Under the pieces are notes generated by a model. That model saw only the letters and a program-made list of their open reading frames with translations, had not been told where the DNA came from and searched no databases. Positions 5,598 to 45,879 of a DNA stretch of 64,000 bases are shown here, in pieces. The stretch lies in the NCBI RefSeq assembly GCF_003987725.1, contig NZ_RXJH01000005.1. One strand, given 5' to 3'. Position 1 is the stretch's first letter. The number at the start of each line of letters is the position of its first letter. Source of the DNA: Hyphomicrobium sp. Lineage in GTDB: Bacteria; Pseudomonadota; Alphaproteobacteria; Rhizobiales; Hyphomicrobiaceae. A program made the translations under genes and the position numbers.

Positions 5598-5891
5598 TTA
5601 GTCGCAGTAGCGATAGCCGTGACGCCAGTAGCAGTCGCCATAGGCGTCTGCAGCAGCCGCACCAACGATCGCCGCGCCGATGCCAAGAGCGATCCACCGC
5701 CCATTGTGCCAGTATCCGCGCCCGCGATGATGGCCATAGCGATAGCCGCCGCGGTCATACCCGTGCGCGTAATGGCGTCCGCCGTGACCACCGGAGTAAT
5801 GACGGCCAGGGCCGGCATCGGCCGTGGTTGCGAATGTCGCGAGCGGCAACGCAGAGGCCAGCGCCGCGGCAAGACCAATAAATTTTCTCAT
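5598..5891 (-). CDS. Small secreted Gly/His/Tyr/Arg-rich protein
   Basis: MRKFIGLAAALASALPLATFATTADA signal, low-complexity GHYR region, hydrophobic IALGIGAAIVGAAAA segment; AGGAG RBS. Confidence 0.7.
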   Translation of the reverse strand: MRKFIGLAAALASALPLATFATTADAGPGRHYSGGHGGRHYAHGYDRGGYRYGHHRGRGYWHNGRWIALGIGAAIVGAAAADAYGDCYWRHGYRYCD

Positions 5892-6207
5892 TGCAGGACT
5901 CCTTTTTGGCGGGACGGCCCCGCCGCGCTGATACCGACCCAACACCTGTAGCGTCGGTTTGGTTTCAAGCTTTCTTTTGCGTCGGGATCTATTTTGGATA
6001 TGGGGAGAGAATGAGAGCCCTGCAGGAGGCTATACGCCGCGATAAACGCAAACGAATTCCACCGTTATTCATTCGCCATTCACATTCGGATTGCGCGATC
6101 GTCCGCTGAAAATTTCGTGAGCGCGACGTGAAACGTTAAGTGCTCCGAAGCGTCATTTCCGGAAGCGCGTGCACGCGAAGATCGCTCGTCCGAAGCACCG
6201 AACACAT

Positions 6208-6465
6208 TCAATACCGGCGGTACCGTCCCGAATAATAATGCCGTTCAGGTCTTCCATTACCGCACGCCCAACTTCTCGTACCACTCTCGCAGCCGTAACG
6301 GTGGAGCAGTTCAGCGTCGCGCGCATTCGTCGGCCCACCGGCGCGCGCATTCGCGCGGGCCGCCTCCAGCTCCGCTGCTTCCCCACCGCCTCCGGCATTG
6401 GCCGGGAACGGTGCCGCTGCGGCCAGCGTGGCCATTGCCCCCGCTATCACCATCAATCGAGACAT
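6208..6465 (-). CDS. Small secreted protein, E-x-ARA...RYG family copy A
   Basis: Signal peptide ending ANA; core ELEAARANARAGGPTNARDAELLHRYG; GGAGG RBS. Confidence 0.7.
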   Translation of the reverse strand: MSRLMVIAGAMATLAAAAPFPANAGGGGEAAELEAARANARAGGPTNARDAELLHRYGCESGTRSWACGNGRPERHYYSGRYRRY

Positions 6466-6604
6466 GGCTTCACCTCCAGATTCAAGCTTAAATCGGGTCA
6501 GGGCATAAGAATTCAAGTCGTCCGCACAGAAACAAAATCATCGCCTAACGTCGAAGCTGCGTTTACCTTTGAACGGCGGCATGCCGCCGAAGGAGCCGAG
6601 ACAC

Positions 6605-7414
6605 ATGTTCTGGCCAATCGTCATAATCATCCTGCTGATGTACGCCGCCGTATGCGTGCGAATTCTTCGCCAATACGAACGCGGTGTCGTTTTCGTACTC
6701 GGCAAATTCAGCGGCGTCCGCGGACCGGGCCTCATCTTTCTTCTGAGCCCGTTTCAAACGATGGTGCGCGTATCGCTTCGCACTGTCACGATGCAAATCC
6801 CTTCGCAGAAGATCATCACCAAAGACAACGTCTCGATCGATATCGCCGCCGTCGCCTACTACCACATCACCAATCCCGAGAAGGCCGTCATTGCGATCGA
6901 AAACGTCTACGAGGCAATCAATCAGATCAGCCAGACGACGGTTCGCAACGTCGTCGGCCGTTTCTCACTCGACCAGCTTCTCGCGCAAACGGCGACCGTC
7001 AACGAGCAGATAAAGGAAGTGATCGACACGCACACCGAGCCGTGGGGCACGCAAGTCACCGCCGTCGAAATCAAGGACATCGTCCTTCCCGAAAACATGC
7101 AGCGTGCGATGGCCAAAGAGGCCGAGGCCGAACGCGAGCGCCGCGCCAAGATTGTCGCTGCCGAGGGCGAGTTCCAGGCGGCCGTCAAGCTTGGCGAAGC
7201 CGCCGACATCATCACGCAGCACCCCGTCGCGCTGCAATTGCGAACCCTGCAGACGATGGCCGAAATCGCGACCGAGCGGAATTCGACGATCATTTTCCCC
7301 GCACAATTCCTGACGACCGTCCAGGAGGCGCTGGCGATGTTCAAGACCACCGCGAAATCCGAAGAACTGCTTCCGAAGCCGAACGGCGACGATGCCAAAC
7401 CCAAACCGATGTAA
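6605..7414 (+). CDS. SPFH/band-7 stomatin-like (slipin) protein
   Basis: N-terminal TM, QYERGVVF, AMAKEAEAERERRAKIVAAEGE coiled coil. Confidence 0.92.
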   Translation: MFWPIVIIILLMYAAVCVRILRQYERGVVFVLGKFSGVRGPGLIFLLSPFQTMVRVSLRTVTMQIPSQKIITKDNVSIDIAAVAYYHITNPEKAVIAIENVYEAINQISQTTVRNVVGRFSLDQLLAQTATVNEQIKEVIDTHTEPWGTQVTAVEIKDIVLPENMQRAMAKEAEAERERRAKIVAAEGEFQAAVKLGEAADIITQHPVALQLRTLQTMAEIATERNSTIIFPAQFLTTVQEALAMFKTTAKSEELLPKPNGDDAKPKPM

Positions 7415-7507: not shown

Positions 7508-7786
7508 ATGGCAATGAATGTTTGGAAAGGCTTCTGCGTTGGCGCGAGCATTTGCGGTTTGCTCGCCTTTGCCGCCATTGCCGAAGAAGAAAAAACCAGC
7601 CCGCAAGCAGCTACGCCCCCGACTGCCGATGAACAAGCGGAAGAGTCAGCCACTTCCGGCGGCCTCGTCACCTACAAGGACCACGCGATCATCCCGCACG
7701 GCAAATGCGACTACTTCCATCAAAGGGCGTTGGATAGCAACGAGCCCAAATGGTGGGAGCGATACCGGAATTGCGAAAGCGGATAA
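7508..7786 (+). CDS. Small secreted hypothetical protein
   Basis: Signal-like N-terminus; GAGAGG RBS. Confidence 0.55.
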   Translation: MAMNVWKGFCVGASICGLLAFAAIAEEEKTSPQAATPPTADEQAEESATSGGLVTYKDHAIIPHGKCDYFHQRALDSNEPKWWERYRNCESG

Positions 7787-12593: not shown

Positions 12594-12668
12594 TGGTGAG
12601 CCCGGTTGGGATCGAACCAACGACCCTCTGATTAAAAGTCAGATGCTCTACCGCTGAGCTACGGGCCC
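12594..12668 (-). tRNA. tRNA-Lys(UUU), copy 1
   Basis: 75-nt cloverleaf GGGCCCG...CGGGCTCACCA, anticodon loop CTTTTAA, encoded CCA. Confidence 0.97.
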
Positions 12669-13457: not shown

Positions 13458-13532
13458 TGGTGAGCCCGGTTGGGATCGAACCAACGACCCTCTGATTAAA
13501 AGTCAGATGCTCTACCGCTGAGCTACGGGCCC
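13458..13532 (-). tRNA. tRNA-Lys(UUU), copy 2
   Basis: Identical to copy 1. Confidence 0.97.
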
Positions 13533-34731: not shown

Positions 34732-37698
34732 ATGAAATCACCGACGAAAAAGCCGGCTGCCCGCCCCGGTTCCGAATTGATGAAGACGATCCACGTACGC
34801 GGGGCGCGTGAACACAATTTGAAAAACGTCGATCTCGAAATCCCGCGCGACGCGCTCGTCGTGTTCACGGGCCTGTCGGGATCGGGAAAATCGTCCCTCG
34901 CCTTCGATACGATCTATGCCGAGGGCCAGCGCCGCTACGTCGAAAGTCTGTCCGCCTACGCGCGCCAGTTCCTCGAGATGATGCAGAAGCCGGACGTCGA
35001 TCATATCGACGGCCTGTCGCCCGCCATCTCCATCGAGCAAAAAACCACCTCGAAAAATCCCCGCTCCACCGTCGGCACGGTGACGGAGATCTACGACTAT
35101 CTCCGTCTGCTGTTCGCCCGCGTCGGCGTCCCCTATTCGCCCGCGACCGGCCTCCCCATCGAGAGCCAGACCGTCGCGCAGATGGTCGACCGCGTGCTGG
35201 CGCTGCCCGAGGGCACCCGCCTTCTGATCCTCGCGCCCGTCGTGCGCGGCCGCAAAGGCGAATACCGCAAGGAAATCGCCGAGTGGCAGAAGAAGGGCTA
35301 CCAGCGCCTCAAGATCAACGGCACCGTCTACGACATCGGCGACGCCCCGAAACTCGACAAGAAATTCAAGCACGACATCGACGTCGTCGTCGATCGCATC
35401 GTCGTCAAGAAAGACCTCGGCACGCGCCTCGCGGATTCCTTCGAGCAGTCGCTGAAGCTCGCCGACGGCCTCGCCATCGCCGAATACGTCGACAAGCCGC
35501 TGTCGAAAGCCGAGACCGAAGGCGCGAACAAGTCGAAGAACGATACGCACGAACGCATCCTCTTCTCGTCCCGCTTCGCCTGCCCCGTCTCCGGCTTTAC
35601 GATCGACGAGATCGAGCCGCGGCTTTTTTCGTTCAACGCCCCCGCCGGCGCCTGCCCCGTCTGCGACGGCCTCGGCTCCGAGCTTCGCTTCGAACCGGAC
35701 CTCGTCGTGCCAGATGGCGCGCTCTCCCTCGAAAAGGGCGCGATCTATCCGTGGGCGAAAACCGGCGTCTCGTCTCCCTATTACGAACAGACGCTCGAAA
35801 GCCTCGCCAAGCACTACAAGGTTTCGATGAAGACGCCGTGGGAGCGCCTGCCGAAGCACGTGCAGCTGGCGATCCTCTTCGGCTCGGATGACGAAGACAT
35901 CACCTTCACCTACTGGGACGGCAACCGCAATTATTCGACCGAGAAACCGTTCGAAGGCGTCATCGGCAACATCGCCCGCCGCTTCAAGGAAACCGATAGC
36001 GACTGGGTCCGCGAAGAACTCTCCCGCTATCAGGCGGCACACCCCTGCGAAGGCTGCGGCGGCTACCGCCTGAAGCCGCAAGCGCTCGCGGTGAAAGTCG
36101 GCGGCAAGCACATCGGCGAGGTCTGCGATCTCTCGATCAAGGCCGCCAACGAGTGGTTCAGCGAAATCCCGAAGACGTTCACCAAGCAGCAATCCGAAAT
36201 CGCGACGCGCATCCTCAAGGAAATCCGCGACCGCCTGAAATTCCTGAACGACGTCGGCCTCACCTACCTCACGATGTCGCGCGCGTCCGGCACGCTGTCG
36301 GGCGGCGAAAGCCAGCGCATACGCCTCGCCTCGCAGATCGGCTCCGGCCTGACGGGCGTGCTCTACGTCCTTGACGAACCGTCCATCGGCCTCCACCAGC
36401 GCGACAACGACCGCCTGCTCGACACGCTGAAGCACCTGCGCGACATCGGTAATACCGTCATCGTCGTCGAGCACGATGAGGACGCGATCATGCACGCCGA
36501 CCACGTCGTCGACGTCGGCCCCGGCGCCGGCATCCACGGCGGCCGCGTCGTCGCGCAAGGCACGCCGCAGGACATCATGGACAATCCGGCGAGCCTCACC
36601 GGCGAATACCTGTCGGGCGTCCGCTACGTGCCGATCCCGAAAACCCGCCGCGCCCCCGACAAATCGAAAATGCTCACCGTCACCGGCGCGCGCGAGAACA
36701 ACCTGAAGAACGTCTCGGCCTCGATCCCCGTCGGCCTCTTCACCTGCATCACCGGCGTCTCGGGCGGCGGAAAATCGACGCTGCTCATCGACACGCTCTT
36801 CAAGGCCGTCGCGCGGAAGCTCAACAACGCCAAGGAGCACCCGGGCGAGCACGACAAGATCACCGGCATCGAGCACTTCGACAAGATCATCGACATCGAC
36901 CAGAGCCCGATCGGACGCACGCCGCGCTCGAACCCGGCGACCTACACCGGCGCCTTCACGCCCATCCGCGAATGGTTCGCAGGCCTCCCCGAAGCGAAAA
37001 CGCGCGGCTACGAGCCGGGCCGCTTCTCCTTCAACGTGAAAGGCGGACGCTGCGAAGTCTGCCAGGGCGACGGCGTCATCAAGATCGAGATGCACTTCCT
37101 GCCCGACGTCTACGTCACCTGCGAGGAATGCAAGGGCAAGCGCTACAATCGCGAGACGCTCGCCGTCACCTTCAAGGAGAAGTCCATCGCCGACGTGCTC
37201 GACATGACCGTCGAGGAAGGCGCCGAGTTCTTCAAGGCCGTGCCGTCGATACGCGACAAGCTCGAAACGCTCGCGCGCGTCGGCCTCGGCTACATCCACA
37301 TCGGCCAGCAGGCGACGACGCTATCAGGCGGCGAGGCGCAGCGCATCAAGCTCTCGAAGGAATTGAGCCGTCGCGCCACGGGACGCACGCTCTACATCCT
37401 CGACGAGCCGACGACCGGCCTCCACTTCCACGACGTCGCGAAACTCCTGGAGGTGCTGCACGAGCTCGCCGACGCGGGCAACACCGTCGTCGTCATCGAG
37501 CACAACCTCGAAGTCATCAAGACGGCCGACTGGGTCATCGACCTCGGCCCCGAAGGCGGCGACGGCGGCGGCACCATCGTGGCGGCCGGAACGCCCGAAG
37601 ACGTCGCCAAGACCAAGGAAAGCTATACCGGGCAGTATCTGAAGCCGGTCCTCGCCCGCAAACCCAAGCCCGCGAACAAGAAGCAGGCTGCGGAATAA
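34732..37698 (+). CDS. uvrA: Excinuclease ABC subunit A
   Basis: [10 protein letters not shown], two Walker A motifs, LSGGE signatures, Zn fingers. Confidence 0.98.
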
Positions 37699-37703
37699 AA
37701 AAT

Positions 37704-37895
37704 ATGGGGCGGCGATCCGGAGTTCCGCATCGACGAGACGAATTGGAAAGCCTTTCGCCGCGTCAGTTGGATGACGAAATCGCTCGATTGAAATCGCGCC
37801 TGCGATTCCTCAACGGTGAAGGCAAAGAATCCGCGTTGCGACGGCTCGCGGCGGTCCAGAAAATCCGCGAGCAAAAGGCGCAGGCGGCCGAATAA
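37704..37895 (+). CDS. Small hypothetical protein
   Basis: 63-aa helical ORF starting 5 nt after the uvrA stop. Confidence 0.45.
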   Translation: MGRRSGVPHRRDELESLSPRQLDDEIARLKSRLRFLNGEGKESALRRLAAVQKIREQKAQAAE

Positions 37896-37945
37896 CTTAC
37901 CCTCCCCCTCGCGGGGAGGGTGGCACGCAGCGCCGGGTGGGGGGA
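37896..37945. repeat. REP-like palindrome (partial)
   Basis: AACTTACCCTCCCCCTCGCGGGGAGGGTGGC, nearly identical to the start of 38522-38677. Confidence 0.7.
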
Positions 37946-37973
37946 CGCGTGTCCCCTGCGCCAACCGAGGCTC

Positions 37974-38177
37974 TCAATTAAACGCCTGACCGGGCGGAAA
38001 TCCCATCCGCTTGAACACCATCGCCGCCGGGCAGAACCCCGTGAAGGCCGACTGCACCAGGTTGGCGCCCACGAACAACGTGAGCAGCAGCCAATACGGC
38101 GACACGAAATACGCGAGCGCCAGCGAGAGCAGCACCATCGCGCCAGCAAAAGCAAACACCGCCTTGTCGATTGTCAT
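37974..38177 (-). CDS. DUF2892 (YgaP-like) membrane protein
   Basis: FVGANLVQSAFTGFCPA motif. Confidence 0.85.
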   Translation of the reverse strand: MTIDKAVFAFAGAMVLLSLALAYFVSPYWLLLTLFVGANLVQSAFTGFCPAAMVFKRMGFPPGQAFN

Positions 38178-38234
38178 CGGAAACCTCCCTGAGCGACATG
38201 CCTGTAGGTAAGTGACGAAGCGAAGGGCTGACGA

Positions 38235-38423
38235 TTAGGCGAGCTTGTTCCGGATGGCGATCGCGACGGCGCTGGATATGAGCCAGAACCCTCCGCCGAT
38301 ACCCAGCACGCCGTACTCCTCCGGCGTACCGCCGCCGAAGAGCTTCAGCAGAGCCATCGCAAAACCGACCAGCCCGCCTAGGAAAAGGAGCAAGATTATC
38401 GCTTCCAGCAAGGACTTATGCAT
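38235..38423 (-). CDS. Small two-TM hypothetical protein
   Basis: Two hydrophobic helices. Confidence 0.5.
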   Translation of the reverse strand: MHKSLLEAIILLLFLGGLVGFAMALLKLFGGGTPEEYGVLGIGGGFWLISSAVAIAIRNKLA

Positions 38424-38521
38424 GAGAATTCCCCGTTTTTATTATTGTCCACGGGGATCACATTAATTGATCCGCATGAGGAGCGATACGGGCGGGATGG
38501 AGTGATCCGCTGCCGCCGAGC

Positions 38522-38677
38522 AACTTACCCTCCCCCTTGCGGGGAGGGTGGCGCAAAGCGCGGCTTCCGGCCGGCTACGCGGAGCGGAGTCGGAAGCCGC
38601 AATCAAAAAGCGCCGGGTGGGGGCAGACCGAGAGAATTCCCCTCCCCCTTGCGGGGAGGGGTTAGGGGTGGGGGTCC
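38522..38677. repeat. REP-like multi-hairpin palindrome
   Basis: Two ccctccccct(t)gcggggaggg hairpins flanking a gcggcttccg/cggaagccgc-type stem. Confidence 0.75.
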
Positions 38678-38689
38678 GCAAACAAAACT

Positions 38690-39106
38690 CTAGAAAAATC
38701 GTTCGAGAAACGCCGCAACCTCATCCGAGATGCCGACGATCTTGTTCGTTGCCTGCCGGTAGAACTTGAAATTGAGCTCAGTCTCGGGCCGACCGTCGTC
38801 CCAATCGCTGAAACCCTTGAGCGTACTCCGACCCAACGGCCGCTTCGCCAGCGCCGTACGGCGGATCGTGACGCTCACGCGCGGAGTCTGCCGCTCGATA
38901 CCGGGCTTCCTGGGAGTAGCCTCAGCCGACGTAACAACGCCGCGCGCGACGAGGCCCTGGCCGCCCTCGTTCTCGCTCGCGAACACGAAAATCGTGTCGC
39001 CTTCCGAGATGAGCTTCCCGCCGTACATCGTCTTCTGCGCAGTGAACACGAACGTCCCGGCGCGGGGATCGCCAACTTCAGCCTTGATCGCGAACGCCAT
39101 GGTCAC
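38690..39106 (-). CDS. Conserved-looking hypothetical protein (possible PUA/EVE-like beta-barrel)
   Basis: GDTIFVFASE...GLVARGVV pattern; fold guess is inference; GGAG RBS. Confidence 0.65.
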   Translation of the reverse strand: MTMAFAIKAEVGDPRAGTFVFTAQKTMYGGKLISEGDTIFVFASENEGGQGLVARGVVTSAEATPRKPGIERQTPRVSVTIRRTALAKRPLGRSTLKGFSDWDDGRPETELNFKFYRQATNKIVGISDEVAAFLERFF

Positions 39107-39119
39107 TCCGCTCCTAGAT

Positions 39120-39203
39120 CAAGGAAGCTGCACGGGACAGTATTTGAAGCCGGTGCTGGCGCGAAAGCCGAAGCCCGCCAACAAGAAGCAGGCGGCGGAG
39201 TGA
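39120..39203 (+). pseudogene. uvrA: Displaced duplicate of the uvrA 3' end
   Basis: 39132-39203 encodes [23 protein letters not shown], identical in protein to uvrA 37627-37698. Confidence 0.92.
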
Positions 39204-39246
39204 CGGAGGCGCACCCCCGCCGCTGGCATCGACTTCCTGTTCAAAT

Positions 39247-40263
39247 TCAAAGGAACTTGAGAGACTCTTGAGAGAGACCCTTCCTTACAATTAGCGTGGG
39301 AAGATCTGCGTCGTCCGCCAGCTTTGCTGCTTTAAGGACGACCTTGCCTTGCTTAAGGGCGTCTCCGATTGACTGGCCACTAGCTAGTGCAGCGTAAAAG
39401 CGAGTCGAGAACAATGTTGCGGCACTGTCGGTGATTGAATCCGACATCGCAACGACTGCCCGTACTGTCTTCAAAAAAACATCCGCGCCCACCACTGTAT
39501 CGCACGCATTGAAGACCAATAGGTCCGGTGGGGAATGCGTAGCATCGATGGTCTCTTGCACCACCCCGAAGTCAAGCTCCACTCCCCCGTCTTCATCCAC
39601 ATCTCGATTATCGAATAATACCGCAGAGTCCCCACCATGCCCCGAAAAATGTATGACATTGGGCTTAAATTCATTGAGCGCGTCGAGCAAATCCTCTAAT
39701 CGCGCTGCGGGCAAATGTCGGACTTCGACATAATCGCGATTAGGCGACTTCTTTAACTCTTTGAGCACGTCACGCATTTCCATATCTGTACGCAGCGCAG
39801 CATCGCGAACCGGATTTGTAGTTAGGAACGCTATCCGAAGTTTCGCAGAACTCTTACCTTCTCTACTGGGTTTGGATTTTTGTGGATGGGGCATGCGAGG
39901 CCGGACAAATGAGAGACCTCCTGCGGCAGAAACTACGGGCGGAGAGGATGACGTAAATTTCTCCATCTTGCTAGGATCAGCGACGAATCGAACGATTTTG
40001 TCCTTATTATGCTGATAAAACTCAATTTGCTTGTACGCGGTAACGCCATCCTTCTTTTCCTGGTCGAATAAGCCAGCCTTTTTTAACGCCACGCCATTCT
40101 TCAAAACTTGCTCTCGAGTAAGCCCTACAGAGACGGCTATCTCGTCGACGGATTTAATGCGCGATTTGTGGTAATAAACCTCCTTGAAGATCGCCAACTT
40201 CAGCTCGGAACGACCGATAAATTCAACGGCTTCAATTATTTTCTTGTCTAATGCCACTATCAT
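39247..40263 (-). CDS. wHTH-CHAT (caspase-like protease) protein
   Basis: C-terminal CHAT with the IHFSGHG (His) and LVFNAC (Cys) dyad; N-terminal SVDEIAVSVGLTREQV..NGVALKKAGL winged-HTH pattern. Confidence 0.88.
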   Translation of the reverse strand: MIVALDKKIIEAVEFIGRSELKLAIFKEVYYHKSRIKSVDEIAVSVGLTREQVLKNGVALKKAGLFDQEKKDGVTAYKQIEFYQHNKDKIVRFVADPSKMEKFTSSSPPVVSAAGGLSFVRPRMPHPQKSKPSREGKSSAKLRIAFLTTNPVRDAALRTDMEMRDVLKELKKSPNRDYVEVRHLPAARLEDLLDALNEFKPNVIHFSGHGGDSAVLFDNRDVDEDGGVELDFGVVQETIDATHSPPDLLVFNACDTVVGADVFLKTVRAVVAMSDSITDSAATLFSTRFYAALASGQSIGDALKQGKVVLKAAKLADDADLPTLIVRKGLSQESLKFL

Positions 40264-40460
40264 TTTTCCTTGAGCGCGGCCTTCGAAAACATTTTACTTA
40301 TTTGGCTTTGGGAGGTGCCCAACGCGACGGCAATGTCGTTTTGCGTGTGCTCTTCCTTATTCTTGTTGAGGAGAGCGTAGACGAGCAGCTTCTTTATCGC
40401 TTGCAGCTCCTCTAGCAACGCATTCTCGTTTGATTGAGCCACGATAGCGACCTTTCTCAA
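40260..40460 (-). CDS. Small HTH protein 5
   Basis: LLEELQAIKKLL + TQNDIAVALGTSQSQISKMF; TTG start overlaps the upstream stop. Confidence 0.8.
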   Translation of the reverse strand: MRKVAIVAQSNENALLEELQAIKKLLVYALLNKNKEEHTQNDIAVALGTSQSQISKMFSKAALKEK

Positions 40461-40654
40461 TCCGCAGAAATCGAGCCGTGATTGACTTCTTTCGCGATCC
40501 CCTTCGGCAACATCCTGCTTAAGGTGGCCTCACTTACTCCGAGAGTCGCGGCAACCTGCTTTTGCTTATAACCGGAAGCCAAAGCCTGCAATATTAGCAG
40601 TTTCTTTATTGCGCTTAATTCCTCAAGAAGCGCTTCATCGGGCGAATGCGCCAT
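40457..40654 (-). CDS. Small HTH protein 4
   Basis: LLEELSAIKKLL + KQKQVAATLGVSEATLSRMLP. Confidence 0.85.
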   Translation of the reverse strand: MAHSPDEALLEELSAIKKLLILQALASGYKQKQVAATLGVSEATLSRMLPKGIAKEVNHGSISAD

Positions 40655-40655
40655 C

Positions 40656-40823
40656 TTACGTTTCCCTCTGTTTGAATTTTAGACCTTTGGGGAACATCCG
40701 GCTGACTTGGCTTCGATCAATACCAAGAGCCGAACCTATCTGCTCTTGAGTTGCCCCCTGCCAGAGGAGAGTGAACACCATCAACTTCTTAATCGCCTCA
40801 AGTTCCTCGGCAATTTTTTCCAT
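40656..40823 (-). CDS. Small HTH protein 3
   Basis: IAEELEAIKKLM + TQEQIGSALGIDRSQVSRMFP; GAGG RBS. Confidence 0.85.
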   Translation of the reverse strand: MEKIAEELEAIKKLMVFTLLWQGATQEQIGSALGIDRSQVSRMFPKGLKFKQRET

Positions 40824-40833
40824 TTGAACCTCA

Positions 40834-41058
40834 TCAGTTTTTCTTCTCTCGTTTAGCTGCCGACAGCGCAACGCTGACGGTATTTGGCGTAGAATCGCAA
40901 AGCGCTGCAATTTCCTTCGGCGCTAAACCAGCACGACTTAGGATGATCGCCTTTTCTTTCAGACTTGGGACGTTTGCGACCAGAGAAAGAGCTGTAAGCC
41001 GTATCAATACATCCAGTTTTGATTCGACCCGACTCATGACGTCATTTTCTTCGTTCAT
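40834..41058 (-). CDS. Small HTH protein 2 (sigma-region-4/LuxR-like HTH)
   Basis: KLDVLIRL + AGLAPKEIAALCDSTPNTVSVALS. Confidence 0.8.
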   Translation of the reverse strand: MNEENDVMSRVESKLDVLIRLTALSLVANVPSLKEKAIILSRAGLAPKEIAALCDSTPNTVSVALSAAKREKKN

Positions 41059-41357
41059 TTCATTCGCTCCTTGGTCAGCGGGTAGATATGCAGGGGCTTG
41101 CTCTCGTTCTTATCCCCCAGCTTGACAACGATGCCTGCTTCGACCCAGCGGGCCACCGTCTTGCTGAAATTGCTGGGATCAAGCTTCAATTCTTTGGCAA
41201 TTTCGCCCTGCAGTCTCGTCCCGTCACACAAGTTGTATGCGGCAATCTGCGTTTCACCAGGACTTTTCGGAGCCACAATTTGCAGAACCTTATCTTCAGA
41301 GAATGCTTGCCTCGCAGTCATGCTCAAGATCGCCCGCAACAAAGTTTCTTCGTACAT
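41055..41357 (-). CDS. Winged-HTH protein 1 (MarR-like)
   Basis: QGEIAKELKLDPSNFSKTVARWVEAGIV; GGAGG RBS. Confidence 0.85.
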   Translation of the reverse strand: MYEETLLRAILSMTARQAFSEDKVLQIVAPKSPGETQIAAYNLCDGTRLQGEIAKELKLDPSNFSKTVARWVEAGIVVKLGDKNESKPLHIYPLTKERMK

Positions 41358-41423
41358 CTTCCCTCCTATGACCCTACGGATAAGACCTATCAACAACGCT
41401 GATGACGATGAGAAATCGCGTAA

Positions 41424-41446
41424 TAAATTGAAGTTACTTAATTTTA
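41424..41446. promoter_or_regulatory. Imperfect AT-rich palindrome, candidate operator of the HTH-CHAT operon
   Basis: TAAATTGAAGT-T-ACTTAATTTTA; 9 of 11 positions pair. Confidence 0.4.
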
Positions 41447-41598
41447 TAGGATTTCACGCTTTGCCAGAACTTACTGGCCTTAGCTCTAGGGTGGGACCCG
41501 CGACTTTCAATTTATCCGCCCCAACGCGGCACATGGGGCGTCGGCTGATAGTTTCAAGTGGATTTTCTGGATTTTTTCTCAGTTTTCACGGATGCTCT

Positions 41599-41780
41599 AA
41601 AAAATCTTATCCCCGCCCTCTCCACTTCCCCCATAATCCCCTCACCCATCCGGCAAGGGCATCGCGCGAGAAGTCTCGATGGCGCTTCAGATGCCCACGC
41701 GCATCCGCGCTTAGACTGCGCTTCAGATGCCCACGCGCATCCGCGCTTACGCGCCGCTCGGATGGGGCAGCCTCACCCGC
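41599..41780 (+). repeat. Structured repeat R1 (5' part only, with an internal 32-nt tandem duplication)
   Basis: Shares AAAAATCTTATCCCCGCC...CATAATCCCCTCACCCATCCGGCAAGGGCATC and CGGATGGGGCAGCCTCACCCGC with R2/R3. Confidence 0.85.
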
Positions 41781-41957
41781 GAGCCTTTACGTGCCTGCGT
41801 CTGACCCAAATCGGACACGCATCGATGGCCATGCGGTGCGGGGTGCGCCTCATAAATCGCACTGCGGAAAATATCTGTGCCGGCAACGGTCCTTTACTTG
41901 GCAACCGCGAAGCACTCGACTAGCGTTCGCGCAGATTTGTCCGCACGGGGGGTTGCA

Positions 41958-42254
41958 ATGCAGGTTTTCAAGTTGGGCTTCGTGGCCGCGGTTATGGTGT
42001 CCGGACTTTCGGCGATGGCTCAGGCAGCCGAATGTACGAGGGTCGGAGCCATTGGCGATAACGTCACCCACGATTTGGCAGTTCTGTTCTCCACAAACGC
42101 ACTTAAGAATACGATCGCCGGGCGAGGACTTATAGGGAAGGGGCCCGTGAAAACCACCTGCACCGGCTCGGGGATGATTGAGTGTCACTCCTCGCAGATG
42201 GCCTGCAAGGGCGGGACGCCCGCAAGCTGCTTAGGCGCCTGGCTTTGCTTCTGA
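41958..42254 (+). CDS. Small secreted Cys-rich protein
   Basis: Signal peptide ending AQA; six Cys in the mature region. Confidence 0.7.
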   Translation: MQVFKLGFVAAVMVSGLSAMAQAAECTRVGAIGDNVTHDLAVLFSTNALKNTIAGRGLIGKGPVKTTCTGSGMIECHSSQMACKGGTPASCLGAWLCF

Positions 42255-42360
42255 ACGCGGAGCTAGACGTGGACTCGTGATGCTTTGGGCTACTTTTGGC
42301 CCGAAGCAGACCGCTTACCCCCGCGCTCTCTATTTGCACTTGGCGCCTTCTACGTCCCGC

Positions 42361-42770
42361 AAAAAAAACTTATCCCCGCCCCCATCGCTTCCCCCATAAT
42401 CCCCTCACCCATCCGGCAAGGGCATCGTGCGAGGCGTCGCGCGGCGCTCGGATGGGGCAGCCTCACCCGCTCGCGGAACGCGCGCGATGCGGTCAAGGCG
42501 GAAAGCAGGTCCGCACGGCATGAGAGAAACCGTGTGCGGAATATCCCGCTTCATTAAGTGACCTGCCGGAAACCTGATCTCTGGCTGTCACGGAGCGGAC
42601 CGGTTCCGAGACTTGAATTGCGAAGACCCAACGCCGCGGAACCCGTCCGCTTCGTGCTTTATTGCTTGCACACGGCGACTCCCCTCCAGGGAGCCGGCCG
42701 CCGTGTGCATTTGCTGTTTCGCCGGCCGCCAGCACATGCCTGCCGCGTCGTTCTTCGTTCAGTTCCGCGA
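42361..42770 (+). repeat. Structured repeat R2 (410 nt; candidate ncRNA or non-autonomous element)
   Basis: Near-identical to 45461-45841; multiple hairpins. Confidence 0.9.
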
Positions 42771-42799
42771 ACCTATCGCCGGGCGCAGACTGGTCCTTT

Positions 42800-45277: not shown

Positions 45278-45460
45278 TCACACACTCCATTGACCCTCCA
45301 TGCTCGGCCCCGAAGCATTTTGTACATCCAAAAATTAGATCGTAGCGGCGGAAAAAAATGGGCCACAAGGTTTGGCAACGACAGATTTCATCAGCGTTCT
45401 GATTTTCAAGTAAACCGACGGTTAAAGCCCACCGAAATGGGTTTATCCTTTCCGCGTCTC

Positions 45461-45841
45461 AAAAAAATCTTATCCCCGCCCTCTCCACTTCCCCCATAAT
45501 CCCCTCACCCGTCCGGCAAGGGCATCACGCGAGGCGTCGCGCGGCGCTCGGATGGGGCAGCCTCACCCGCTCGCGGCACGCGCGCGATGCGGTCAAGGCG
45601 GAAAGCAGGTCCGCACGGCATGAGAGAAACCGTGTGCGGAATATCCCGCTTCATTAAGTGACCTGCTGGAAACCTGATCTCTGGCTGTCACGGAGCGGAC
45701 CGGTTCCGAGACTTGAATTGCGAAGACCCAACGCCGCGGAACCCGTCCGCTTCGTGCTTACCTGTTGGTGCTGGCGACTCCCCTCCGGGGAGCCGGCCGC
45801 CAGCACATGCCTGCCGCATCGTTCTTCGTTCAGTTCCGCGA
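45461..45841 (+). repeat. Structured repeat R3 (381 nt)
   Basis: Direct-repeat partner of R2. Confidence 0.9.
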
Positions 45842-45879
45842 GCCGGCCGGTTGCACACGCCTGTTGCTTCGCTCGTCCG

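Follow-up and report, generated by a model that had tools for sequence, protein, structure and literature searches.

In E. coli, phage 21 and the prophage e14 use an attachment site that lies within the housekeeping gene icd (PMC12803456). The element brings a replacement 3' end for this gene, while the original end is left stranded as icdC on its far side; in strain K-12 the duplicated stretch comprises 165 nt with 12 differences, 10 of which are synonymous. The uvrA locus of Hyphomicrobium described here resembles this arrangement, yet e14 possesses its own integrase and excisionase (intE and xisE) and a fixed 165-nt overlap, whereas at uvrA no recombinase was found, the overlaps are variable (42 to 160 nt), the inserts measure 0.5–2.5 kb and several scars follow one another in tandem. 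In Streptococcus thermophilus (the ICESt1/ICESt3 family), cis-mobilisable elements with duplicated gene-end att sites accrete in tandem behind fda, at its 3' end. Both fda and uvrA are core genes whose 3' ends are followed by tandem integrase-less segments with duplicated gene-end flanks, but accretion at fda depends on the integrase of a resident ICE and on a defined core site, and neither such an element nor such a core was found at uvrA. The 'minimal mobile elements' of Neisseria are exchanged through flanking homology; these and defence-island hotspots between core genes share with uvrA the presence, among closely related genomes, of differing defence systems at one syntenic position, exchanged in the absence of dedicated mobility genes, although at defence-island hotspots the end of the flanking gene is not duplicated. 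Hotspot 39 of E. coli, near uvrA-ssb, is positioned beyond ssb and not at the uvrA 3' end (PMC11728103).

The displacement arrays of rhs, cdiA and type VI secretion system (T6SS) effector genes (Jackson et al. 2009; PMC5361080) offer a further likeness, as a conserved 5' anchor acquires a new 3' end together with downstream genes, and old 3' ends persist as orphan fragments in a row without an integrase. For Rhs and T6SS effector displacement, homology-facilitated illegitimate recombination followed by later homologous exchange has been proposed (Kirchberger et al. 2017, PMC5361080). In those arrays the displaced tips are polymorphic toxin domains which are kept with their immunity genes, whereas uvrA is a housekeeping repair gene with equivalent ends, a displaced end without known use and an unrelated payload.

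The window, i.e. the whole 64,000-nt stretch of Hyphomicrobium sp. DNA that was analysed, contains the following features at and directly downstream of uvrA.

34732..37698, plus strand: uvrA, intact, likely start at Met17 (34780)
37614..37698, plus strand: copy A, the functional uvrA terminus, stop codon TAA
37704..37895, plus strand: orfS, 63 aa, starting 5 nt past the uvrA stop
37867..37895, plus strand: remnant C, a short and decayed uvrA terminus (..ASKK(A)QAAE*) with which orfS now ends
37896..37945: REP hairpin H1 (CTTACCCTCCCCCTCGCGGGGAGGGTGG...)
37974..38177, minus strand: YgaP-like small membrane protein, 67 aa (Pfam PF11127, 1e-11)
38235..38423, minus strand: o62, predicted membrane protein, 62 aa
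38509..38523, plus strand: remnant D, a possible uvrA-end trace of ~15 nt (GCTGCCGCCGAGCAA), abutting a REP
38524..38625: REP hairpin H2, broken at ~38557-38614 by a second palindromic element
38636..38675: REP hairpin H3, an assembly break point in public runs
38690..39100, minus strand: o138, stand-alone EVE/PUA-like protein, 136 aa
39114..39203, plus strand: copy B, the stranded uvrA terminus, stop codon TGA

The uvrA gene is intact, matching the NCBIfam UvrA equivalog over the whole profile (1605 bits) and sharing 94% nucleotide identity with that of Hyphomicrobium sp. 2TAF46 (L001). Translation of both copies confirmed that 37627-37698 and 39132-39203 encode the same 23 residues plus stop, while 13 of the 72 nt differ: 12 synonymously, at third or first codon positions, and one through the TAA/TGA exchange. 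An independent repeat search also recovered the pair (75 nt, 83%). The abrupt onset at CAAGGA (37614 and 39120) reported in the earlier, sequence-only reading was likewise confirmed, the second copy having lost 1 nt. Weak similarity continues leftwards for another ~6 nt (AAGACC / TAGATC) and is more evident in relatives (CCAAGAC / CCAAGAT). The 1-nt deletion and a TAC>TGC change fall in the first 13 nt of copy B, the other 72 nt being in frame and intact. The stranded copy corresponds to the last 28 uvrA codons and meets the leader of o138 at uvrA codon -29. A direct repeat of the 3' end of the target gene flanks the inserted DNA, and its proximal copy, of a codon type common to every genome with o138, completes uvrA. 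Copy B is a pseudogenised and displaced uvrA 3' terminus; its once-functional nature, as previously proposed, is borne out by the right flank in L001, L095 and L098, which is the REP usual after a functional uvrA stop. A Tn7-like insertion, which would show TnsABC/TniQ genes, transposon ends, a 5-bp target duplication and an unduplicated gene end, does not fit: searches recovered no transposition genes, and an 84-90 nt duplication of the gene end is seen instead.

Concerning the DNA between the two ends, orfS has a diverged homologue in L001 only, and family searches returned no match for either orfS or o62. The YgaP-like gene and o62 are both missing from L001. Remnant C shows contiguous homology with the unit of stranded end and REP in H. 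facile and L095. Remnant D would be weak evidence of a uvrA end if taken alone, but its adjacency to a REP backs this assignment. Within the 64-kb window the REP family of H1 is confined to the uvrA 3' region. The palindromic element inside H2 (GGCTTCCGGCCGGCT..GAGTCGGAAGCC..CAAAAAGCGC) belongs to a family found as in-frame insertions in the uvrA tails of L092, L093, L094 and L099. The start codon of o138 lies ~20 nt from the stranded uvrA end. This protein has more than 8000 homologues at 80-96% identity, its structure model (pLDDT 83) gave the THYN1 EVE, ASCH and YTH folds as best matches, and its dN/dS among carriers is ~0.15-0.2.

The junction between o138 and the stranded uvrA end, which joins the 5' leader of o138 to uvrA codon -29, is common to at least five Hyphomicrobium genomes or contigs: the window, 2TAF46, H. 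facile (L081) and contigs L095 and L101. These carriers form a tight uvrA clade (99-100% amino acid identity in the C-terminal part) with a uvrA dS of 0.17-0.25 (~0.2). The minimal insert consists of a REP element and o138 only, with a size of ~0.63 kb for L095 and ~0.77 kb for L101, and o138 is the core cargo of the ancestral displacement. In the window the interval is composite, orfS and the YgaP-like/o62 pair being later additions to an interval that also holds the short uvrA end and REP remnants C and D; the single insertion of ~1.4 kb envisaged in the sequence-only reading was not borne out. That reading had also regarded fixation of the arrangement across relatives as evidence against itself; fixation is partial, extending to the junction carriers, and the scar is therefore old and not an active element.

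Variable cargo and duplicated ends, both of which had been suggested as targets for comparison, were found downstream of uvrA in related genomes. Homology between genomes stops exactly at the stop codon and is followed by differing cargo. This cargo comprises the CHAT gene in the window, a 390-aa ORF in L001 and ThsB-TIR/SLATT in L081 and L083, while PARIS is located after the functional uvrA stop in L081. Elsewhere the cargo includes DarG (L002), AbiEi/AbiEii (L009) and an Old/GajA-like gene (L092). This cargo is low in GC, mostly of defence type and placed directly after a functional or stranded stop; in close relatives one syntenic site holds differing, defence-enriched cargo of atypical composition. 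The 3' flank of uvrA acts as a hypervariable slot that takes up small cassettes, largely of defence type, and this bears out its suggested role as an insertion hotspot well beyond what the window alone had indicated.

The same type of scar arose independently in other Hyphomicrobiales, where stranded uvrA ends occur twice in L007, twice in L009, three times in a row in L096 and once each in L004, L019, L093 and L094. The intervals between copies span 0.5-2.5 kb and are occupied by other genes. Orphan 3' ends are found in series both in the window (copy B with remnants C and D) and in L007, L009 and L096 (two to three each); the stranded pieces are 15-160 nt long, display frameshifts or nonsynonymous decay and lack a partner gene. 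As in the displacement arrays described above, the 5' gene body is kept while a new 3' end and downstream DNA probably derive from another lineage. Within a serial '3'-end displacement' array, copy B constitutes one of the relics.

The region downstream of copy B in the window is organised as follows.

39204..41598, minus strand: low-GC cassette (47-50%, from the GC profile)
39247-40263, minus strand: wHTH-CHAT protein (CHAT PF12770, 3e-12; PADLOC SAVED_CHAT, 1e-6)
40260-41396, minus strand: four to five small paralogous HTH proteins
41595..42773: repeat-rich spacer, conserved in L001
42800..45277, minus strand: sulfatase gene (Pfam Sulfatase, 2e-65)
45460..45844: right copy of a 414-nt direct repeat

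Homology of L001 to the window ends at 39204 and restarts at 41599; in relatives other cargo takes the place of the low-GC cassette, beginning precisely at the stranded stop. An 84-nt element occurs in the spacer at 41595 and again at 42358, and the left 414-nt direct repeat (42360-42773) also lies within it. The sulfatase cassette, located between the 414-nt imperfect direct repeats, is missing from L001, and synteny with relatives returns at ~46355. This cassette with its long imperfect direct repeats represents a second, similar insertion in the same region.

Several explanations for the stranded ends were weighed. An artefact of assembly, already judged unlikely in the sequence-only reading, or of chance has no point in its favour and a negligible probability: exact contigs from four independent public runs cover both copies (e.g. 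X1 contigs 37543-38665 and 38646-41628), and the same structure is seen in separately assembled genomes. Tandem duplication of the uvrA end in situ, with the copies diverging in place and without foreign DNA, can produce insert-flanking direct repeats and would account for the clade-specific tail that both copies encode. Single-base changes in the duplicated stretch are synonymous in only 24% of cases, and 12 of 12 would arise by chance with a probability of ~4e-8. The earlier deduction that such purely synonymous divergence reflects two functional lineages stands in part. Comparison with relatives places approximately five of the 13 differences (GTC CTC GCC, GCT, GAA) in the lineage of the functional copy itself, which permits synonymous change only; a further three originated in the stranded one, and no more than three to five plus the stop codon separate the copy types as such. 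The changes on the stem of the stranded copies, polarised with L002 (ACC>ACG, GGG>GGA, GTC>GTG, CTC>CTG), are nevertheless all synonymous (P ~0.003-0.02), unlike the expectation for a non-coding copy. Moreover, L098, a relative that is a non-carrier, possesses a functional uvrA end with stranded-type codons (ACG..GTG CTG GCG AGA). Together these two observations point to a sister-lineage origin of the stranded copy. As a repeat search also found no duplicate elsewhere in the window of the DNA between the copies, duplication in situ is disfavoured as highly improbable. A single ancient event followed by vertical descent only, with the pseudogene decaying in place and cassettes turning over by unrelated indels, has more to commend it, since the junction is present in all members of the tight uvrA clade, stranded copies differ from one another at 11-27 of 85 nt, an amount that neutral decay can reach at a dS of 0.2-0.3, and the L001 copy exhibits the expected nonsynonymous excess (1:5 synonymous to nonsynonymous among lineage-specific changes in the 72-nt tail). 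Such a single event with uneven decay may explain the trio of window, L001 and H. facile. Against it, all six tail changes specific to copy B and to the copy of H. facile are synonymous (6:0, P ~2e-4 under neutrality), and differences among stranded copies with the same junction are mainly synonymous (pN/pS 0.25-0.4), as would suit an origin from different alleles, although these tests have low power because all counts derive from 72-85 nt. The nonsynonymous and indel lesions of copy B and the H. facile copy are grouped in the first 13 nt, a hybrid pattern that would fit crossovers within the stranded end. Furthermore, the stop position is kept in all five stranded copies despite the use of three different stop codons, and cargo boundaries fall exactly on stop codons. 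We consider vertical descent alone improbable.

It is also possible, though on balance unlikely, that the inserts are integrase-less (cis-mobilisable) remnants of site-specific integration, in which an attP with a replacement uvrA end was used by a tyrosine or serine recombinase acting in trans. The architecture is like that of e14 in icd, and accretion at att sites typically produces tandem arrays. In addition, boundaries recur: GCCGnnCGGCACGCC is common to three stranded copies (L094, L096-1 and L096-2), and two independent events (the window clade and L007-2) begin at most ~8 nt apart at KES. Random illegitimate joins do not predict such recurrence, which could be due to a microhomology hot spot or to site specificity; GC-rich microhomology is possible at the junctions. 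Conversely, left boundaries lie anywhere between about -42 and -160 nt, giving copies of 42-160 nt without an evident common core, and no conserved arm sites are apparent, as copies that share a boundary have unrelated sequence to its left. In phmmer searches, IntE, IntA, XerD and PinE were compared with all 7259 ORFs that reach 100 aa; no recombinase was identified downstream of uvrA in any of the ~100 scanned loci that contain this gene, nor an integrase-like ORF anywhere in the 64-kb window, in agreement with the initial impression that no integrase is visible. The sole matches were an IntA-like pseudogene and weak XerD-like matches, upstream of uvrA in L002, L076 and L077. No viral contig was found with an attP-like uvrA end, no donor configuration was recovered, and no excised-circle or empty-site joint between the copies was present in the contigs of the four runs, which cannot show absence. 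The attL/attR interpretation initially offered thus receives no direct support.

Displacement of the uvrA 3' end without a recombinase is the best reading and, in our estimation, a reasonably probable one. DNA from a sister lineage would have carried the 3' portion of uvrA with its terminus complete, followed by the cargo, and would have entered through RecA-dependent recombination, for which the highly conserved body of uvrA served as anchor, while the far end would have been joined illegitimately or via microhomology within the last 40-160 nt of the recipient gene (homology-facilitated illegitimate recombination). The incoming terminus would preserve uvrA function, thereby displacing the resident terminus downstream. 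Only short, diverged stranded pieces would survive, because longer direct repeats would re-delete the insert. The last 120 nt are the most diverged part of uvrA, almost wholly at synonymous sites, with a synonymous divergence 3-5 times that of the rest of the gene. The stranded end and uvrA would then provide homology on both sides of the cargo, such that cassettes could be moved or swapped into any related genome by ordinary double crossover, the recipient's own tail being left stranded on each occasion. We tentatively suggest, as a less than probable extension, that stranded termini act as portable homology arms which render otherwise immobile defence and toxin-antitoxin cassettes transferable by RecA only. 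If this is true, a housekeeping gene would host a cassette array that resembles an integron and is ordered newest first, yet has no integrase; every transfer would strand the recipient's own tail and increase synonymous diversity at the gene end.

For the arrival of defence systems at hotspots that lack mobility genes, the uvrA locus provides a concrete and testable route, in which a near-universal, highly conserved gene would serve as anchor, a spare gene end would preserve fitness and the displaced end would supply the second homology arm. If a trans-acting recombinase instead targets the uvrA end, it would represent a new att-site specificity. The scars record both donor and recipient alleles, and the history of transfer is therefore readable from the sequence. 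The signature, short in-frame copies of the last codons of a core gene located downstream of that gene, is searchable genome-wide, and such a search could reveal other recombinase-free cassette sites.

Concerning the terminus of uvrA, the same 23 residues plus stop codon are encoded twice in the window, once at the end of the functional gene (37627-37698, TAA; copy A) and once in a stranded terminus displaced downstream of it (39132-39203, TGA; copy B), and the two copies differ at 13 of 72 nucleotides with no amino-acid change. Only 24% of the possible single-base changes in this stretch of the tail are synonymous, and chance is therefore excluded for the all-synonymous pattern. The similarity begins at CAAGGA (37614 and 39120), where copy B carries a 1-nt deletion. 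Four public runs, independent of one another, supply exact contigs across both copies and their flanks, and the duplicated 3' end with synonymous-only differences, as described in the sequence-only reading, is confirmed. The window uvrA is a full-length gene with a UvrA equivalog score; the UvrA profile stops approximately 13 residues short of the stop codon, which makes the final portion of the tail an extension specific to the clade. A reading in which the stranded end is translated as part of a 145-aa antisense ORF (38766-39203) was rejected, since the frame is not kept in the closest genome, Hyphomicrobium sp. 2TAF46, or in H. facile.

Features between and beside the two uvrA ends (window positions)
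37614-37698 (+): copy A, functional uvrA terminus
From 5 nt past the uvrA stop: orfS, a 63-aa ORF
37867-37895: remnant C, the 3' end of orfS (..KAQAAE, then stop), homologous to the relatives' stranded end plus REP
Between the copies (-): YgaP-like membrane protein
Between the copies (-): o62, a 62-aa membrane protein
Between the copies: three REP-type hairpins (H1, H2, H3)
38509-38523: remnant D, a uvrA-end trace of about 15 nt directly ahead of REP H2
38690-39100 (-): o138, a 136-aa gene, its start codon some 20 nt away from the stranded end
39114-39203 (+): copy B, stranded uvrA terminus
39247-41396 (-): low-GC cassette of a wHTH-CHAT (caspase-like) protein and 4-5 small paralogous HTH proteins
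Right of the CHAT cassette: repeat-rich spacer
42360-42773 and 45460-45844: 414-nt imperfect direct repeats, either side of a sulfatase gene

Judged from its sequence, the region reads as a series, namely uvrA; orfS with remnant C and a REP; the YgaP-like gene and o62 with remnant D and a REP; a REP with o138 and copy B; and the CHAT cassette. Remnant C together with REP H1 has contiguous homology to the unit of stranded end plus REP found in H. facile and in the metagenome contig L095. Right after the stranded stop, GC falls from about 62% to 47-50% over 39250-41600. In the cassette located there, four or five tandem HTH paralogues (65-113 aa, common motif ..EEL.AIKKLL..) precede the wHTH-CHAT protein and the PADLOC matches are weak (SAVED_CHAT and a CasR/Csa3-like HTH); the cassette may constitute an undescribed defence-type system. 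An 84-nt element occurs three times (41595-41686, 42358-42448 and 45458-45548), its first copy adjoined by a 36-nt tandem duplication (41682-41753); within the 64-kb window this family and the REP hairpin family are confined to the region downstream of uvrA, for which promoter/terminator and Rfam scans returned no match.

A palindromic REP/MITE-like element of approximately 55 nt (GCGCCTTCCGGCCGGCT..GAGTCGGAAGGCGCAAACAAAAGAGC) lies in frame within the uvrA tail coding region of several lineages (L092, at about 7660-7715, L093, L094 and L099), making UvrA approximately 14 residues longer, and is located just past the uvrA stop in L097 and L100. In the window, a member of the same family (38557-38614) is nested in REP H2 with an AAGCGC repeat on both sides. 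In one public run a minority contig (depth 5 versus 37) passes from 38610 straight to 46353, with 10 extra letters at the join, so that everything from o138 and the stranded end through the CHAT cassette to the sulfatase is missing; it has the appearance of a co-occurring strain whose array is shorter. Elsewhere, two tRNA-Lys(UUU) genes (12594-12668 and 13458-13532, minus strand) lie 0.8 kb apart.

The sequence-only reading had proposed a single insert of about 1.4 kb, and here it was mistaken as to age, size and unity. Hyphomicrobium sp. 2TAF46 (uvrA 94% identical to that of the window at the nucleotide level) shares with the window its type of uvrA end and also carries REPs, o138, a homologue of orfS and, at the junction found in the window, a stranded uvrA end; the ygaP-like/o62 segment and the sulfatase are absent from it. 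A different low-GC gene of 390 aa follows its stranded stop, and homology to the window picks up at 41599. In H. facile, which likewise carries o138 and the stranded end, a REP and a ThsB-TIR/SLATT pair come next; its interval from uvrA to o138 holds an ars operon and a PhnB-like gene as well as AriA/AriB, a PARIS-like pair. The minimal form, observed in metagenome contigs L095 and L101, consists of o138 and the stranded end, preceded by the uvrA stop and a REP-bearing stretch of about 120-260 nt. Three further loci (L083-85) keep o138 and TIR/SLATT and have lost most of the stranded end, and L092 retains a mere 26-aa o138 remnant adjoining an Old/GajA-like gene. The next outgroup, the MAG locus L002, has no stranded end, and between its uvrA and the point where synteny returns lie genes for a membrane protein and a HAD hydrolase together with a DarG-like gene of low GC; upstream of its uvrA lies a fragmented P4/IntA-like integrase pseudogene (5865-7268, minus strand). 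Since relatives share the junction and differ in the intervening cargo, the sequences indicate that the o138/stranded-end junction is old (uvrA dS among carriers 0.17-0.25) and the window's 1.4 kb composite. Differences in content concentrate just after uvrA stop codons, functional or stranded.

The o138 product is covered by no Pfam or NCBIfam model, and no exact-protein matches to it or to UvrA were found. More than 8000 homologues at 80-96% identity occur across distant phyla, a conservation unusual for an uncharacterised small protein, and one source names the o138 product an EVE domain protein. A search of its sequence against the PDB gave no match, leaving fold comparison alone as informative; the structure model is confident (pLDDT 83) and resembles THYN1 EVE, ASCH and YTH folds. 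The o138 product is a stand-alone EVE/PUA-like protein. The idea that o138 is a uvrA-targeting mobile gene was rejected, as many homologues in other phyla occupy unrelated contexts.

The origin of the two copies was addressed in a comparison that covered five stranded copies along with functional ends, five from carriers and three from non-carriers. About five of the 13 differences in the window arose in copy A, and three are specific to copy B. The differences that separate the copy types are synonymous (ACC/ACG, GGG/GGA, CCC/CCG and probably GTC CTC/GTG CTG) and fall on the stem of the stranded copies where L002 permits polarisation (P about 0.003-0.02). A non-carrier, L098, has a functional uvrA end with the codon choices of the stranded copy, and next to it the REP that in Hyphomicrobium sp. 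2TAF46 comes after the stranded end. On the strength of these synonymous stem changes and of the L098 end, the stranded end is very probably a once-functional uvrA terminus of a sister allele, displaced with its native downstream flank, and the earlier notion of two alleles and a gene-end replacement scar is upheld. Stranded copies at the same junction differ mainly at synonymous sites (pN/pS 0.25-0.4). In the 72-nt tail, changes specific to the window and H. facile copies are 6:0 synonymous, their nonsynonymous and indel lesions being confined to the first 13 nt; the copy of Hyphomicrobium sp. 2TAF46 has five nonsynonymous versus one synonymous. It is suggested that the window and H. facile stranded ends are hybrids of an old left edge moving with o138 and a more recently stranded recipient tail.

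In every pairwise comparison the last 120 nt are the most diverged part of uvrA (12-17 versus 1-8 differences per 120 nt), almost wholly synonymously, as would be expected from repeated import of foreign ends. When the window is compared with each of Hyphomicrobium sp. 2TAF46, L101 and H. facile, a block of very low divergence (36600-37340, 360-1100 nt upstream of the stop; 0-5 differences per 120 nt) sits between more diverged 5' and 3' parts, a mosaic which suggests recombination inside uvrA.

Searching each locus with its own uvrA tail revealed further cases.

Stranded uvrA pieces in other loci
L007: two pieces, 42 and 110 nt
L009: two pieces, about 160 and about 70 nt, either side of an AbiEii/AbiEi pair
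L004: one piece, about 40 nt
L019: one piece, about 36 nt
L093: an internal uvrA piece and a DUF5131 ORF ending ..LQAAE, then stop
L094: one piece, adjoining an 85-aa ORF
L096: three pieces within 2.4 kb

The stranded tails in these loci resemble the host's own tail type, and the events are therefore separate. Scars were present in 5 of 80 species-level genome loci, all five among the 19 closest to the window. With differing cargo after the uvrA stops of relatives and scars at separate loci, the proposal that the uvrA 3' end is a hotspot stands.

An attL/attR-style mechanism, as first suggested, is not supported. No recombinase was detected among the window's genes by Pfam, NCBIfam and PADLOC, nor when 91 ORFs of 16 loci were scanned with Pfam, a weak negative given that some antisense ORFs were included. 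A stronger integrase test took IntE, IntA, XerD and PinE of E. coli as phmmer queries against the full set of 7259 ORFs that reach 100 aa, and found no recombinase downstream of uvrA; the only matches, an IntA-like pseudogene and weak XerD-like ones, lie in other loci and on the upstream side of uvrA. A single tyrosine-recombinase regex match was a false positive. The intervals between copies (0.5-2.5 kb) are too small for an integrase beside the genes found in them. The viral collection held no attP-like uvrA ends, three other pattern matches being due to chance. A 44-kb IMG/VR predicted provirus (L106, 1094-9091) starts inside uvrA and abuts the uvrA stop. Within 2-8 kb of that stop it has a 1214-aa tail-fibre-like gene and an endolysin (GH108), and a search of it for a second uvrA end gave none.

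A displacement model, combining anchored recombination with an illegitimate join, has been put forward to account for arrays of rhs and T6SS effector genes (PMC5361080), and is best supported here because no recombinase was found and because of the small intervals and the variable boundaries. Recombination would be anchored in the conserved uvrA body with an illegitimate second join, later homologous exchange would use uvrA and the stranded end as two arms, and survivorship would leave only short, diverged repeats visible. We consider a recombinase-free mechanism somewhat the likelier, and that the stranded end acts as a portable homology arm is a tentative and rather doubtful proposition. The model leaves unexplained that the boundary GCCGnnCGGCACGCC recurs in three stranded copies with unrelated left flanks and that a KES boundary recurs in two events; these could mark a GC-rich microhomology hot spot, or be the footprint of the main rival, a site-specific enzyme that could act in trans at the uvrA end, against which the left boundaries spread from -42 to -160 nt. 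Returning to displacement by anchored recombination, the sulfatase cassette seems to be another outcome of such an event: its 414-nt repeats are 97% identical over the first 300 nt, and Hyphomicrobium sp. 2TAF46 has a single repeat copy and no sulfatase.

Among known systems, the duplication resembles that of prophage e14 in E. coli K-12, where icd/icdC share 165 nt with 12 differences, 10 of them synonymous; unlike the window locus, e14 has its own integrase. The integrase-free serial architecture is like that of rhs, cdi and T6SS displacement arrays, in which, unlike at the uvrA locus, the displaced pieces are working toxin tips. Defence hotspot 39 of E. coli ('uvrA-ssb') was rejected as a precedent, as it sits between ssb and yjcB and not at the uvrA 3' end, and a literature search on stranded, truncated or partial uvrA, or on islands at its end, retrieved nothing relevant. 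What appears to be new here, with no recombinase visible, is displacement of the 3' end of a housekeeping repair gene, with cargo of a putative defence type.
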